From: a virus
Lineage: Duplodnaviria; Caudoviricetes
Virus record (IMG/VR): IMGVR_UViG_3300042090_001530
Location: 128,001 to 192,000 of that record
Length of the DNA: 64,000 nt
Strand: one strand, 5' to 3'
The notes below the pieces were generated by a model. It saw only the letters and a program-made list of their open reading frames with translations. It was not told where the DNA came from and ran no database searches. Both the position numbers and the translations under genes were made by a program. Positions 47,374 through 53,283 of the stretch are shown here, one piece after another. Position 1 is the first letter of the stretch; each line of letters opens with the position of its first letter.

Positions 47374-49089
47374 TCAGTTCGTCTTCGTGTTGGTCAGGTG
47401 CGGCCCGATATACCCGACGATCATCTTGCCGGTCAGGCCCTTCGTGTCGTCGAGGAAGTAGACGCGGGGGCTGATTGATCCTCTTCGCTCGATCTGCAGG
47501 TGCGCCTGCATGGTCGTGCTGCCGTCCGGATCCACGTCGCTGGGGACCGGGAAGACGCGTTCGTCGCCCCAGTGGGCCATGGTCGTGTCGGATTCGGACA
47601 TCGCGACCTGCGTGAGCGGCCAGCCTGCGGCGGCGCGTCCGGATCTGCAGTACTGGTAAAAGCCCGCATGGTCTGCATGCGTGGCCGCGTATCCGTCCAG
47701 TGCGCGCAGGCCCTGCCACGTTTTGGCCGCCCACACCCTGGAGCGTTCGTTTTCGTCGAGAGACAGGGCTATCTGCGCGTCGGCGGTCAGCAACACACCC
47801 GTAAGGCCCGCGGCGCGCTCGAGGAGTTCGGCGAACGAGCCTGGGGCTCCCGGCGTGTCGCTGACTGCCGCGGCGTCTGCGTGCCGCCCCTGGGCGTACA
47901 GGAGGCCGCGCAGCACCTCGGCTTCGCCGCGGCCCCGCTCCGCCTCCTCCAGTGCCCACAGAGCCTCTTCCGTGTCCGCGTCGGACTGTCCGGCGAGCAT
48001 GGCGTTCTGCTGCTCGAGCGACGCGATGGCGCGTTGCGAGAGCATGTCGGCGCGGCCGGCCTCACGCAGGTCGTCGTCGGCTTGCTTGAGGAGCGCGGTG
48101 AGGTCGGAGACTTCCTGCTGGAGGGCTTGGGCATCGACTGTGCCGCGCACGAGGTTGATCGCGGCTTGGCGGGCTTCCCGGTGGGCTTCGCCGACCTCCG
48201 GGAACGTGACCGTGCGCAACGCGTCCGGGAGCGGGGCGGCGGTGGCGAGCCGGTGCAGCGTGTTCGGCAGGGACCGCCATGCCGCGTCCGCAGGGTCCGA
48301 TAGTCGCGCGGCGGCGAGGAACCGGTGCCGGGCCGCGTCGGCTGGCCATGCCGGGTCCACGCCGGGATGGAACGTGCGGATCGAGCCGGTGGCGACCCGG
48401 TGGTCTTCGCCGATCTGCTGCCGGAACGCATGGATCGCATCCTGGTCGGCGAGCAGGTAGAGGGATGCGGCGCCAGCGCACAGCGGCATCGCGCGTTGCA
48501 TACGGTCCGACCAGACCGGTTCCGGGCTGAACGGGCGCGCCGCCACCAGCGCGGGTTTACGCCGGTCCGGGTCGCAGAGGATTTCCACGAGATCGGCCAC
48601 GTCGTACTGGCTGATCTCCTGGGTGCCGCGGGTGAGTTTCGCGGGCCCGTCTTTGGGCTGGAGCGCGGCGACGAGGGAGCGGATCAGGGCGGGCCAGCCG
48701 GGGGTGACGAGCGTGCCGGGGTTCGGGAACGCCTCGAGGCCGACGGCGACGTGCATGGCACCGTTGTCGGCGACTGCGGTGACGGTGGTGCGCCAGGTCG
48801 CGTCCGTGTTCTCTTCGCGCAACTGGAGCCGGATCGCTGCTTCGGCGCCGGCCGGGTTGTAGACGACCTGGTTGATGAGGGTCGCGGTGTCGGTCAGGGC
48901 GTGGTGGCCCGGGGCGAGTGGGGCCTGGTAGTTCTTGCCCGCGAGCCATTCGGCGGTGACCGAGCGCGTCTTGCTGAATGCGTCGGGGTTGCGGGTGGTG
49001 AACGTGGCGCGGTGCGCGAGCGGTCTGTCGGGGTCGCCCGTCGGGGTCGTCGGGGCTAGATCGGCAGGAAGGTGGCTAACCGCGGTCAT
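47374..49089 (-). CDS. Large unknown protein with coiled coil and possible C-terminal RelE-like/toxin domain
   Basis: ATG 49089; heptad region QQEVSDLTALLKQ; ends HLQIERRGSISPRVYFLDD...IVGYIGPHLTN. Confidence 0.6.
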   Translation of the reverse strand: MTAVSHLPADLAPTTPTGDPDRPLAHRATFTTRNPDAFSKTRSVTAEWLAGKNYQAPLAPGHHALTDTATLINQVVYNPAGAEAAIRLQLREENTDATWRTTVTAVADNGAMHVAVGLEAFPNPGTLVTPGWPALIRSLVAALQPKDGPAKLTRGTQEISQYDVADLVEILCDPDRRKPALVAARPFSPEPVWSDRMQRAMPLCAGAASLYLLADQDAIHAFRQQIGEDHRVATGSIRTFHPGVDPAWPADAARHRFLAAARLSDPADAAWRSLPNTLHRLATAAPLPDALRTVTFPEVGEAHREARQAAINLVRGTVDAQALQQEVSDLTALLKQADDDLREAGRADMLSQRAIASLEQQNAMLAGQSDADTEEALWALEEAERGRGEAEVLRGLLYAQGRHADAAAVSDTPGAPGSFAELLERAAGLTGVLLTADAQIALSLDENERSRVWAAKTWQGLRALDGYAATHADHAGFYQYCRSGRAAAGWPLTQVAMSESDTTMAHWGDERVFPVPSDVDPDGSTTMQAHLQIERRGSISPRVYFLDDTKGLTGKMIVGYIGPHLTNTKTN

Positions 49090-49306
49090 GGTTGTCGACT
49101 CTCGGCCGGTTCCGGCAGTGGTGAGATTGCGCGCATGGGGTCCTCCTGGCTGGGGGCTGGGTGGCACGGCTTGCGGGCCGCGTGACGCCCGATGTTCGGC
49201 TGATCTGCCGCTATACCCATTGTTGCGCAACGTGCTGACAATTTCAGGGCGACGGTGTCACTGCAGCGGTCGCCTGAGGCACGGGAAAAGCCGCTGCATC
49301 CAGCGG

Positions 49307-49561: not shown

Positions 49562-49604
49562 GCAGGGCGTCGTGGTCGCTACAGGCGGGTGCGGCGCCCC
49601 GCTT
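49562..49604. terminator. Bidirectional hairpin terminator, copy B
   Basis: GGGCGTCG...CGGCGCCCC; abuts the cas2 stop. Confidence 0.55.
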
Positions 49605-49912
49605 CACCGTCCCGGCCCGTCCGGTTCCGCCGGGTTGAGCGCGATCAGTGCGAGGCCGTCCAGGTCGACGGGAGCGCGTCGACTCTCGCCGGCCGTCTGG
49701 ATCGCGAAGCGCTGTTCGGTGTCGGCGGCGTGGACGAGTACGGCACTGCCGTCGCCGACCGACGCGGCGATCACTGCCCACAGTTCGTCGCGGACCTTCG
49801 CGGACAGCGTCCCCACGTACAGGCCGGGCGTAGGTTCGAGCATCCAACGGCTCAGGGCGCCGCGGACGTGCGGCGCGACTGCGGTCGCGCTGATGACGGT
49901 CAGGTTGCTCAC
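49604..49912 (-). CDS. cas2: Type I-E Cas2
   Basis: LTVISATAVAPHVRGALSRWMLEPTPGLYVGTLSAKVRDELW; GTGA overlap with the cas1 stop. Confidence 0.93.
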   Translation of the reverse strand: MSNLTVISATAVAPHVRGALSRWMLEPTPGLYVGTLSAKVRDELWAVIAASVGDGSAVLVHAADTEQRFAIQTAGESRRAPVDLDGLALIALNPAEPDGPGR

Positions 49913-50910
49913 GGCCCGTCCTGCCCTCGGCCGTGGTTGGTGCCGCTCGGTACCGAACCGGCTTCCGGGTCCCAGAGTTCGAATGCGTTGGCCAGTTCGA
50001 CATTGCCTGCGGGTTCGATCCCCGGTTCGAACAGGCGCTGGATGTCGCGGACGATGTTCGGCATGAGCCGGAACAGGGTCAGTCCGCGCCGGAACGCGCG
50101 CCTGGCGTCGCCTTCGGGGTCTTCGGATGCGTGCAGGGTGAACGCGAGCGGGATGGTGAGTTCGGCCTTGTACAGGTCGGCGATGTCGTACACGAACGCG
50201 TGGCTGGTGCCGGCGTGTACGAATCCGAGGCCGGGGGAGCAGCCGAGCGCGGTGATCGCGGCGTGGACGATGCCGTACAGGCACTGGTTGGCTGCGGTCA
50301 GGGCGGCGTTGACGGGGTCTTGGCTTTCCCAGTCTTCGGGGTTGTAGGAGCGGCGGAACGCGTGCAGGCCGTGCTGTTTGGCGAGGCGCCTGTAGAGGGA
50401 TTTCATCTGCCAGCCTTCCAGCCCGCGGAGCGTGCCCAGTTTGACGCCGTCGGGCAGTTGCCCTTCCGCAGTGGGGAACCGGTGGGCGTACATGCGTTTG
50501 GCGACCGTGAGCCGCTTGGCGGGGTCGGCCCAGGCGGCTGCCTGCTTTTCGAGCCAGCGGCTCGACCGGCTGGACGGGGTGATCGCGGCGTAACAGCGGA
50601 CGGTGCCCCAGCCGGTGAACACGATGGTGGTGCCGTGTCTGGCGAGGGTGGCGACTGCGGGGTTGGTGATGGAGGTTCCGGGGCCGAGGAGCAGGCAGCT
50701 GATGGCGGCGGTGGGGATGCGGAGGCGGCGTGTCGGGGCGCCGACGGCGGGGAATGCGAGGACGCCTGTGTCGTCTTGGGTGATGCGCATGAGGTCGAGG
50801 AACAGGAACGAGAGGCTGTCGCCGACGCGTGGGAGCATGGCTGCGGTGGGTGCGGCGATGCGGCGTCGGGCTTGCTGGGTGTTGGGTTGGGGTTGGTTCT
50901 CTGGGTGCAT
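49909..50910 (-). CDS. cas1: Type I-E Cas1, catalytic residues intact
   Basis: LPRVGDSLSFLFLD, LLLGPGTSIT, LRGLEG (E), LGFVH (H), FVYDIADLYK (D); likely ATG 50910. Confidence 0.95.
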   Translation of the reverse strand: MHPENQPQPNTQQARRRIAAPTAAMLPRVGDSLSFLFLDLMRITQDDTGVLAFPAVGAPTRRLRIPTAAISCLLLGPGTSITNPAVATLARHGTTIVFTGWGTVRCYAAITPSSRSSRWLEKQAAAWADPAKRLTVAKRMYAHRFPTAEGQLPDGVKLGTLRGLEGWQMKSLYRRLAKQHGLHAFRRSYNPEDWESQDPVNAALTAANQCLYGIVHAAITALGCSPGLGFVHAGTSHAFVYDIADLYKAELTIPLAFTLHASEDPEGDARRAFRRGLTLFRLMPNIVRDIQRLFEPGIEPAGNVELANAFELWDPEAGSVPSGTNHGRGQDGP

Positions 50911-51003
50911 CCGTTGTTGATAGCGCGGTTTCGCAGAGGGCTGAATGCTTGTCGCACGAACGAGTGACGTGTCGATGTTCGGCCGGTCCGGATGAGGATC
51001 TCC

Positions 51004-51460
51004 CGATCTTCCCGTGCGCTCGCGGGCCAGACCCTGGATGAAGAGGCGTCCGCGCGACCCCGACAGATCTTCCCGTGCGCTCGCGGGCCAGACCCGACGG
51101 CTCGTCATCGTCCGGCAGTGCCCTTAGATCTTCCCGTGCGCTCGCGGGCCAGACCGGAACTCGCGGCGGCCGGAGTGGTGGACGGCAGATCTTCCCGTGC
51201 GCTCGCGGGCCAGACGCGTCATCCGGCAGATAAACTCGGCCCCGTTGAGATCTTCCCGTGCGCTCGCGGGCCAGACCTGATCGGGGTGCGATCAGTCCTG
51301 CGCATTGCTAGATCTTCCCGTGCGCTCGCGGGCCAGACTGCCGCCGTCGCCGCGGAGACCGCTGCGGAGAAGATCTTCCCGTGCGCTCGCGGGCCAGACT
51401 CTCGGTCACCTGGTCGAGGTAGCCTTCGGCGAGATCTTCCCGTGCGCTCGCGGGCCAGAC
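51004..51460 (-). CRISPR. CRISPR array: 8 repeats, 7 spacers (six of 32 nt, one of 33 nt), type I-E-like 61-nt period
   Basis: Repeat on minus strand GTCTGGCCCGCGAGCGCACGGGAAGATCT; forward-strand starts 51004, 51065, 51126, 51187, 51248, 51310, 51371, 51432. The divergent copy is at 51004 (trailer) and an AT-richer leader-like segment is at 51461-51495. Confidence 0.97.
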
Positions 51461-51484
51461 AGTTCGTGGCCAGCGCAAACACTC

Positions 51485-51660
51485 TTGAGTTTTACTCACG
51501 AGTCAAGGGAAGCCGGGGGATCACTCCCCCGAGATGACCCGCCCCGTCGCCGAGACTGGCCTTCCTGCTTCGACAGCGGGGTCGAGAGCCGCCGGTCACC
51601 CGACGGACTTTGCCCACCTCCACAGGCGTTTAGACTCTCCCCGATATCCGAGGCGAGCGG
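51485..51660 (-). ncRNA. omegaRNA-like scaffold overlapping the 3' end of the dead TnpB
   Basis: GGGGAGAGTCTAAACGCCTGTGGAGG...GAAGCAGGAA...GGGGGAGTGATCCCCC hairpin, ending near TCAA (51485-51488), as in TnpB 3' ends. Confidence 0.6.
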
Positions 51661-53283
51661 TACCGCATGGTGCAGGATATTGCGCGCAGCATTGACCTCG
51701 CGGTCAAGCTTCATACCGCACTTGATGTTCCCGCACCGGAAAACCACCTGCGTAAGCGGGATGCTTGGGTCTCGCCATCCACACTTGCAACAGGTCTGAC
51801 TCGACGGCAGGTCCCCGGCCGCAGCCCGGAACCGCGTACCCCACTGCGCCGCCTTGTACTCCAACTGGCGCCGCAACTCGGCAGGCGCCGTGTCCAGGAT
51901 CGCCCGGTTGAAGCCGGCCTTCACCTTCACGTCGCTGCCGGGCGCCTCGACGGTGCCCTTCGCGGACCCGGTCATCTGCCGGACATTCAGGTCGCGGACA
52001 GCGATCTCCGGATAGTTGATCGCTATGCTCGCGGAGATCTGGTTCAGGGTGCCGCGCCGCGCCTCCGCAGTCCGATGATGCACGCGGCCGAGCCGCCTGA
52101 CCGCCTTGGCACGGTTCGCCGACTGCGCCTGACCGCGCACGAACGGCTTACGCGCCACAGCCTGCGACGCCTTCACCAAAGCCCGCTTGTGCCTCTTGCC
52201 GTACCGAGGATTCTCATACGCAGTCTCGTCCGACAGGGCGACCAGGGTACGAACACCCCACTCGACGCCGACGGCCGGGCGCATCCGCTGCCGTTCCTTG
52301 GAGACCTTCTGCCGGGCCCGGGAGACCTCCTCGCGGTGCCGCATCGCCTCCGGGGACAGTTCGCACAGCACCGACGCGTACCAGCGGGAGCCGCCCCGGG
52401 AGATCGTCACCGACTTGACCACCGCGTGGCCCCGGTCGATCAGCCGCGCGAGGGGCTTGCAGGACTCGAACAGCCGGACCGAACCGATCCGCGGCACGTT
52501 CAGCCGGCGGTGTCCGTCGGGCCGGATCGACGGGTTGTGCACATCGTGGAACAGGGTGAACGAGTCGGTCGAGCGGCCCTTCTTCTTAAACCGGGGCCTG
52601 CCCATCGCCCGGCCGACCCTGGCCCCGGTGCGCGACGCCATCCAGTTCTGCATCGCCGCCTGGGCGCGGTCGAAGCCGTTGGTGAAGCAGTACACGGAGA
52701 CTTCGGGATGCCACGGGGAGCCGCCGTCTGCGGCGTCCTGGTCGCGGATTTCGCGCCACATGGTGGTGCAGTCCATCGCGGACGGGATCGCGTCGCCGCG
52801 CTCGAATCGGGCCTTCTTGAACTGCAGCACCTCGCGGCGCACGGCAGCGAGTCGCTCCTTGATCTCCAGCAGGTCGGGGCGCGTCTTGTCCTTGACTGCG
52901 GCCATCAGGGCTTTGCGCTCGTCGTCGAGCCGTTTGGTGTCGGCGGCCAACTCGGCGGCCTCGGCTTTGAGGATCGGCCGGGCCTGCTTGTCCCACTGCT
53001 TGATCCGCTCGCCGCGCACCTGGGCCGTCCACGCAGCGGTGGACTTCTCGTCCAGGCCGTCGGGCGGCTGCGGCATCGGCCCGGCGATCCGGGTGATGAC
53101 CTCGTCGCGGCGCGCCTCCCAGGCGAGTTGGGCTTGGGACATCCATGCGATGCCGCGGTTGGTGGCCCACCGGGTGGCGCCAGCATGCCGGGCGAAGTCG
53201 GCGAGTTGGGCTTGGGTTGGGTCGAGGGCGAACCGATAGGCGCGCAGAACTGGCGCGGGCGCTTCGGTTTCAGCGGTGGCCAT
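51496..53283 (-). CDS. tnpB: CRISPR-adjacent TnpB/Cas12-like protein, RuvC-inactivated (595 aa)
   Basis: LRAYRFALDPT HTH, RPRFKKKG, Zn finger CCKC/CGNIKC; RuvC-I GVEWG (D>E341), RuvC-II AVRDL (E>R430), RuvC-III DREVNAA (D>E529). Confidence 0.9.
   Translation of the reverse strand: MATAETEAPAPVLRAYRFALDPTQAQLADFARHAGATRWATNRGIAWMSQAQLAWEARRDEVITRIAGPMPQPPDGLDEKSTAAWTAQVRGERIKQWDKQARPILKAEAAELAADTKRLDDERKALMAAVKDKTRPDLLEIKERLAAVRREVLQFKKARFERGDAIPSAMDCTTMWREIRDQDAADGGSPWHPEVSVYCFTNGFDRAQAAMQNWMASRTGARVGRAMGRPRFKKKGRSTDSFTLFHDVHNPSIRPDGHRRLNVPRIGSVRLFESCKPLARLIDRGHAVVKSVTISRGGSRWYASVLCELSPEAMRHREEVSRARQKVSKERQRMRPAVGVEWGVRTLVALSDETAYENPRYGKRHKRALVKASQAVARKPFVRGQAQSANRAKAVRRLGRVHHRTAEARRGTLNQISASIAINYPEIAVRDLNVRQMTGSAKGTVEAPGSDVKVKAGFNRAILDTAPAELRRQLEYKAAQWGTRFRAAAGDLPSSQTCCKCGWRDPSIPLTQVVFRCGNIKCGMKLDREVNAARNILHHAVPLASDIGESLNACGGGQSPSGDRRLSTPLSKQEGQSRRRGGSSRGSDPPASLDS

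Follow-up and report, generated by a model that had tools for sequence, protein, structure and literature searches.

[quoted passage not shown] 2012, PMC3338789). This rule for the -1 base is real but not universal: among I-E repeat-PAM combinations, 48% have a -1 base identical to the end of the repeat and 52% have a mismatch, and the I-E PAM catalogue contains AAT and AAC as well as AAG (PMC8482600). In the type V-N (formerly V-U4) systems, AcCas12n uses the PAM AAG and tolerates AAV but not AAT, and RdCas12n uses AAC and tolerates AAH; the loop HHDVK is said to read the PAM-complementary bases in AcCas12n-like proteins, and Cas12n tracrRNAs overlap the ORF (PMC12216341). Cleavage of dsDNA has been lost in Cas12m and Cas12k (PMC12216341). 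Here, a locus on an actinophage was analyzed that is a variant of these known kinds, a dead Cas12n with its own I-E Cas1-Cas2, a combination for which no description was found in full-text searches of a collection of papers. The window, meaning the whole stretch of 64,000 nucleotides that was analyzed, covers bases 128001-192000 of a 202,490-bp IMG/VR virus genome (CheckV 98% complete, GC 68.6%). The DNA originates from a wetland metagenome and its relatives from soil metagenomes; in four metagenome runs, read mapping showed that the relatives' contigs break at the array.

On the minus strand the effector gene is followed by a 35-nt gap, the array, cas1 and cas2. The array (51005..51460, minus strand), whose leader end adjoins the effector, is composed of seven spacers and eight exact minus-strand copies of the 28-nt I-E-type repeat GTCTGGCCCGCGAGCGCACGGGAAGATC, located at 51433-51460, 51372-51399, 51311-51338, 51249-51276, 51188-51215, 51127-51154, 51066-51093 and 51005-51032. 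No other match to this repeat was present in IMG/VR. Directly 5' of every spacer, each of 32 or 33 nt, stands a T (positions 51432, 51371, 51310, 51248, 51187, 51126 and 51065, spanning 51065..51432 on the minus strand), while the base after the terminal repeat, at 51004, is G. Both observations of the preliminary description, T before all seven spacers and G after the last repeat, were thus confirmed on the minus strand. With the T included, the inter-repeat segment measures 33 nt six times and 34 nt once, and the repeat period is accordingly 61 nt (six spacings) or 62 nt (one spacing), which is the geometry of E. coli I-E, an invariant 28 nt plus a 33-nt unit. At a T frequency of approximately 16% in this genome, the probability that seven T's occur by chance is about 2e-6, so the T is either a fixed base of the repeat or was selected at acquisition. 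In the following, this base is called position 29, and counts given for it refer to repeats that precede a spacer unless stated otherwise.

The adaptation genes that adjoin the array are of I-E type. Cas1 (49909..50838, minus strand; 309 aa, starting MLPRVGDSLSF; Pfam Cas_Cas1) matches I-E Cas1 8fy9 (E 6e-63) and E. coli Cas1 3nkd/5ds4 (E 3e-45) in the PDB, and orthologues were called in the sister loci L011, L013 and L015. The gene for Cas2 (49604..49912, minus strand; 102 aa) overlaps the cas1 stop by 4 nt, and its translation is identical to that of an L011 gene called as PF09707 Cas_Cas2CT1978. The order effector-array-cas1-cas2 recurs on the phage-like metagenomic contigs L011, L013 and L015, with cas1-cas2 inverted in L015, and on the 122-kb contig that encodes the effector homologue P0006. 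Arrays in L017 and L141, long or short, are without adjacent cas1-cas2. After cas2 the window contains an ORF of 618 aa without a Pfam match (47374-49230, minus strand); its positional counterpart in L011 is a gene of 571 aa, and the ORF after cas2 is not conserved in more distant sister loci.

The effector (51496..53283, minus strand; 595 aa) is a Cas12n-like, TnpB-derived protein with Pfam domains OrfB_IS605, Cas12f1-like_TNB and HTH_OrfB. Its best PDB match by phmmer is RdCas12n 9j09 (E 1e-60), with ISDra2 TnpB reaching only E 1e-22, and it is 49% identical to AcCas12n (P0030) of Actinomadura craniellae; no other match to it was found in IMG/VR. The characteristic parts of Cas12n can be observed, namely WED/REC, RuvC and a TNB domain with a CCCC zinc finger, the cysteines of which (C498, C501, C517 and C522) are invariant. 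What is absent is the intact D-E-D RuvC site of Cas12n: residues E341, R430 and E529 align with the catalytic D287, E386 and D484 of RdCas12n, and with E/R/E instead of D/E/D, DNA cleavage is not expected. The E/R/E triad occurs in all 24 closest homologues (P0001-P0024, 46-94% identity), whereas the proteins from P0025 onwards, including AcCas12n, keep D/E/D. At least 25 Cas12n-like E/R/E proteins form a coherent clade, all from metagenomic, phage-like contigs, and no member above 47% identity was detected in a collection of one genome per prokaryotic species. The effector is thus probably a conserved, non-cutting offshoot of Cas12n. Within it, a maximum-likelihood tree places the window effector and P0001-P0005 in a monophyletic subclade of proteins of about 590 aa that carry a REC insertion of about 85 aa. 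Some of the larger dead-clade effectors (P0019, P0022 and P0024; 720-741 aa; L017:5001-7226) possess an N-terminal He_PIG (Ig-like) domain. In L011, an IS200/605 pair comprising a 453-aa TnpB and a Y1 transposase (L011:3414-5084) lies about 1 kb upstream of the dead effector, so that in this sister phage an intact transposon TnpB and a domesticated one are neighbours.

Any argument from the T before each spacer requires that the minus strand is the crRNA strand. Three features indicate this orientation. Firstly, the repeat read on the minus strand resembles an I-E repeat, with a stem-loop followed by a short 3' handle. Secondly, degenerate repeats are situated at the effector-distal end of the arrays in L013, L134, L136 and L009. 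Thirdly, a candidate tracrRNA anti-repeat (51463..51513, minus strand) lies upstream of the array, partly within the 3' end of the effector ORF and partly in the 35-nt gap, a position in keeping with the ORF overlap published for Cas12n tracrRNAs (PMC12216341). It consists of two blocks parted by a hairpin, and its predicted pairing with the repeat amounts to -28.5 kcal/mol (RNAduplex). The same two-block layout is found upstream of the sister arrays and of the AcCas12n array, and the anti-repeat co-varies with the repeat through compensatory changes, for example in L013, where CTTCCACTG pairs with CAGTGGAAG. The two-block element is accordingly inferred to belong to a tracrRNA. The pairing ends 2-3 nt short of position 29, leaving the junction between repeat and guide unpaired.

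The sister arrays differ in the base at position 29. T is found in the window (7/7; G after the terminal repeat), in L011 (effector P0001, 94% identical; 2/2, with T after the terminal repeat) and in L012 (P0002, 86%; 1/1, terminal repeat not in view). C is found in L116 (P0003, 83%; 1/1, terminal repeat not in view) and in L013 (P0005, 82%; 8/8, with C after the terminal repeat). G is found in L014 (P0006; 1/1, terminal repeat not in view), in L140 (P0018; 10/10) and in L141 (P0023; 3/3), and prevails in L015 (P0014, 71%; 15 G and 2 A) and in L017 (P0019; mostly G, also C, A and T), with G after the terminal repeat in L140, L141, L015 and L017 alike. The three T-type arrays do not have a single spacer in common; their ten T's therefore represent ten independent acquisitions, all with T, and the uniformity (10/10) means that no variation is visible at this position. 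The lack of shared spacers also points to rapid spacer turnover, for which immunity-like acquisition is a better fit than a fixed set of regulatory guides. In the G-type array of L015 (L015:6797-7862), the base that follows position 29 is biased as well, with T in 11 and G in 5 of the 17 spacers. In the effector tree the G-type systems are basal, the C-type systems (P0003 and P0005) stand at the base of the subclade of about 590 aa, and the T-type systems (the window, P0001 and P0002) form one derived clade, for which a history of position 29 from G to C to T is the most economical reading of the sequences.

The explanation regarded here as probable, with moderate confidence, is that the T is derived from the PAM and that the PAM of the window system ends in T, with 5'-AAT as the predicted motif. 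The true repeat would then be 28 nt long, and the I-E-type Cas1-Cas2 encoded by the phage itself would import base 29 with each spacer, this base being the protospacer-proximal base of the PAM as in E. coli I-E; a prespacer of 33 nt added to a repeat of 28 nt would yield the 61-nt period. The occurrence of T in 7/7 units here and in 3/3 units of two sister phages would indicate a lineage whose spacers are taken from sites flanked by a PAM with T as its last base. Since the Cas12n family reads 5'-AAN on the non-target strand, the two bases upstream of the T would be AA, and the effector would have to tolerate or prefer T. The U derived from this T at the junction of repeat and guide in the crRNA could pair with the target strand at PAM -1, as has been proposed for E. 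coli, and such pairing would keep acquisition and target recognition matched. The I-E Cas1-Cas2, the 61-nt period, the sister arrays and the characterised Cas12n loci are in agreement with the PAM-derived reading. Regarding the last, the native AcCas12n array (L134, with an effector 100% identical to P0030) has G after 9/9 regular repeats, a Rothia array of Rd-like type (L024; its effector matches 9j09 with E 5e-209) has C before 6 of 7 spacers, and the Cas12n array on a C. glutamicum plasmid (L009) has C at position 29. In both characterised Cas12n lineages, position 29 is consequently the last base of the published PAM, G for Ac and C for Rd-like. On the C. glutamicum plasmid (NZ_CP007723; L009:4650-4830), spacers 2 and 3 of the Cas12n array resemble each other, and CTGCGCATAAACGGTCACAC of spacer 3 recurs just past the degenerate terminal repeat, so that this guide partly matches its own downstream flank.

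As AcCas12n refuses AAT, a changed specificity of the effector would be expected in the T-type systems. The PAM loop of the window effector reads F245-H246-D247-V248-H249, and this FHDVH form, with H249, is private to the T-type effectors; the loop is FHDVK in C-type systems, FHDAK, FHDVK or FHDVT in G-type systems and HHDVK in AcCas12n. The link between H249 and T-type arrays is suggestive in these alignments and corresponds to one evolutionary event (effective n = 1). The fifth residue of the loop was also considered as a general determinant of position 29 and was rejected, as K is present in effectors of both G-type and C-type arrays. On the side of adaptation, the segment of Cas1 aligned with the E. 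coli H208-D221 region does not differ between T-, C- and G-type systems and shows no interpretable change of specificity, so that no adaptation-side cause of the T was identified. Taken as a whole, a phage-borne lineage of RuvC-dead Cas12n may have captured I-E Cas1-Cas2, its PAM -1 base subsequently drifting from G to C to T together with the private K-to-H change in the PAM loop; this scenario is put forward tentatively.

The main alternative is a repeat of 29 nt with T as its true last base, which would be copied from the leader-proximal repeat at each integration and would carry no information about the PAM. The T, C and G of the different lineages would then represent ordinary divergence of the repeat, in line with the differences between sister systems at other repeat positions, and the G after the last repeat of the window would be a point mutation. 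The bases after the terminal repeats favor such templating and speak against the PAM-derived model, as in L011 (T), L013 (C), L015 and L017 (both G) they are the usual base of the array, which is predicted by a templated 29-nt repeat and not by duplication of 28 nt with import of 1 nt. The 52% of I-E repeat-PAM combinations without a match at -1 (PMC8482600) likewise leave room for it. What argues against it is, above all, the variation in L015: the 18 repeats are identical over 28 nt, and the only two variant bases among 18 copies of 29 positions, the two A's, are both at position 29 and both in the units with the only odd spacer-segment lengths of that array, 32 and 34 nt. Two random mutations would both fall at position 29 with a probability of about 0.001. 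Furthermore, templating is opposed by the correspondence of position 29 with the last PAM base in the two experimentally characterised Cas12n lineages, and by the precedent of the I-E integrases, for which derivation of the 29th base from the PAM is established (PMC3338789). Weighing both sides, a templated T is considered rather unlikely.

The terminal repeats also bear on an argument of the preliminary description, in which weight had been given to the G after the last repeat of the window, set against the T before each spacer. This argument has been abandoned, because the 94%-identical L011 has T at the homologous place and L013, L015 and L017 also keep their usual base there. Within an otherwise homologous flank, L011 reads T GGAGATCCTCA and the window reads G GGAGATCCTCA, a difference at 51004 that also fits a templated repeat; most simply, the G of the window is a point difference. 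The 33 nt after the terminal repeat (window 50972-51004, minus strand; L011:7965-7997) are about 80% identical between the window and L011, and are absent at the same place in L013, where the trailer directly adjoins the last repeat. This segment may represent a relic spacer that has lost the repeat downstream of it, or no more than an indel. As a speculation, the relic spacer could reconcile the bases at terminal repeats with the PAM-derived model.

The preliminary description had offered two motifs for a PAM with T at -1, an AAT-type PAM and a TnpB-type TAM (TTGAT-like) to which Cas1 had been retuned. Such a TAM would be a legacy of the ancestral transposon. ISDra2-type TAMs do end in T, the effector is derived from TnpB, and the scaffold of its guide extends over the 3' end of the ORF in the manner of an omega RNA. 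Nevertheless, the nearest characterised relatives are the Cas12n proteins named above, whose family recognizes A-rich PAMs of the form AAN; most of the Ac-type PAM loop has been retained (FHDVH versus HHDVK); position 29 is G in the basal members of the dead clade, as it is for AcCas12n; and neither IS ends nor a TnpA are associated with the effector in the window. The layout, too, differs from that of an IS200/IS605 TnpB, the effector gene being followed by an array of eight repeats and cas1-cas2 in a synteny conserved across phage contigs. A TnpB-type TAM is thus very improbable. Since the effector derives from Cas12n and its basal relatives, as AcCas12n itself, are of the G type, AAT is much the likelier of the two motifs. 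Equally hard to credit is a requirement for U at the junction in crRNA biogenesis or effector loading, with spacers bearing other bases acquired and then lost: the unpaired junction and the uniformity of arrays within lineages would suit it, but every unit would have to come under strong selection after acquisition, mixed bases at position 29 are tolerated in L015 and L017, and the correlation with published PAMs would be left unexplained unless the junction base pairs with the target, in which case it merges with the PAM-derived reading.

Protospacers were sought in several collections, none of which yielded a credible candidate for any of the T-type spacers. The whole window array gave none among INPHARED phages and PLSDB plasmids, nor did the sister arrays L015 and L013 among phages. 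The earlier statement, made by eye, that no spacer has a full match inside the window can be extended to the 202-kb genome as a whole, in which no non-self match is better than 17 of 18 bases, and comparison of all spacers with this genome and with every fetched locus produced no match above chance. Six spacer seeds of 20-23 nt (window S1, S3, S4, S6 and S7; L011 S2) had zero matches in IMG/VR, and one 20-mer of S1 had 14 matches in JGI metagenome contigs, all random past the seed (20-26/32). Among 400 Streptomyces and 400 class-wide actinobacterial genomes, with two candidates scored per genome, nothing exceeded chance. The best matches, 28/33 in Streptomyces for S2 and S5, both of them GC-rich spacers, were rejected, as about 4 are expected by chance (an estimate) and their flanks are non-AAT. 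The longest match found was that of S5, 28/33 at L107:1500-1550 (Streptomyces G294:C1:8555398-8555443); its flank GAGAAGATCA also resembles the 3' end of the repeat, a resemblance judged to be chance in GC-rich coding DNA. Matches of part of the repeat in PLSDB (H49-H51) were likewise attributed to chance (E = 5), being located inside the Cas12n ORF of C. glutamicum. The claim that the protospacers had T at PAM -1 therefore stands in part: the I-E Cas1-Cas2, the 61-nt period, the sister arrays and the Ac and Rd loci agree with it, and a protospacer flank that displays the T was not found.

Should the T come from the PAM, the array by itself would suffice to predict 5'-AAT as the motif targeted by an uncharacterised and probably non-cutting derivative of Cas12n, which would widen the PAM range available to a compact DNA-binding scaffold and make H249 a candidate specificity residue. 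The inference of the PAM is an application of known I-E logic, and AAT is a motif predicted from sequence rather than observed. If the drift from G to C to T is also true, these phages offer a natural series that shows how an integrase can stay matched in its PAM to a single-protein effector unrelated to it, perhaps by nothing more than base pairing between the junction and the target. The occurrence of G, C or T in the sister arrays would, in addition, provide a simple readout of the compatibility between a borrowed I-E integrase and a type V effector.

In comparison with known systems, the locus shares with E. coli I-E the I-E-type Cas1 and Cas2, the stem-loop repeat, the 61-nt period (28 + 33 nt) and a semi-variable 29th base, which behaves as PAM-derived in the sister arrays of the window. 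It differs in having no Cascade, Cas3 or Cas6, the interference partner being a single type V protein, in being phage-borne, and in its preferred base, T rather than G, for which the PAM origin is deduced from the arrays. With the V-N systems of AcCas12n and RdCas12n it has in common the homology of the effector, I-E-like 28-nt repeats and, as a candidate, an anti-repeat or tracr region that overlaps the end of the ORF. In that family of AAN PAMs the trailing base of the repeat equals PAM -1 (G in Ac, C in Rd-like), and for the window AAT is predicted from the T at position 29, a motif that AcCas12n refuses. Further differences from Cas12n are the E/R/E triad in place of D/E/D, the REC insertion of about 85 aa and the adjacent cas1-cas2, none of which genes was called next to the Cas12n gene of C. 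glutamicum, the only Cas12n locus compared in this respect. Cas12m (V-M), Cas12k (V-K) and the TldRs resemble the window effector as RNA-guided DNA binders that arose from TnpB/Cas12, the window effector being, like them, probably non-cutting. Cas12m retains its RuvC site for crRNA processing, Cas12k works with Tn7, and the TldRs use a fixed omega-RNA guide and, to our knowledge, have neither an array nor Cas1-Cas2; the effector of the window, in contrast to all three, belongs to the Cas12n lineage.
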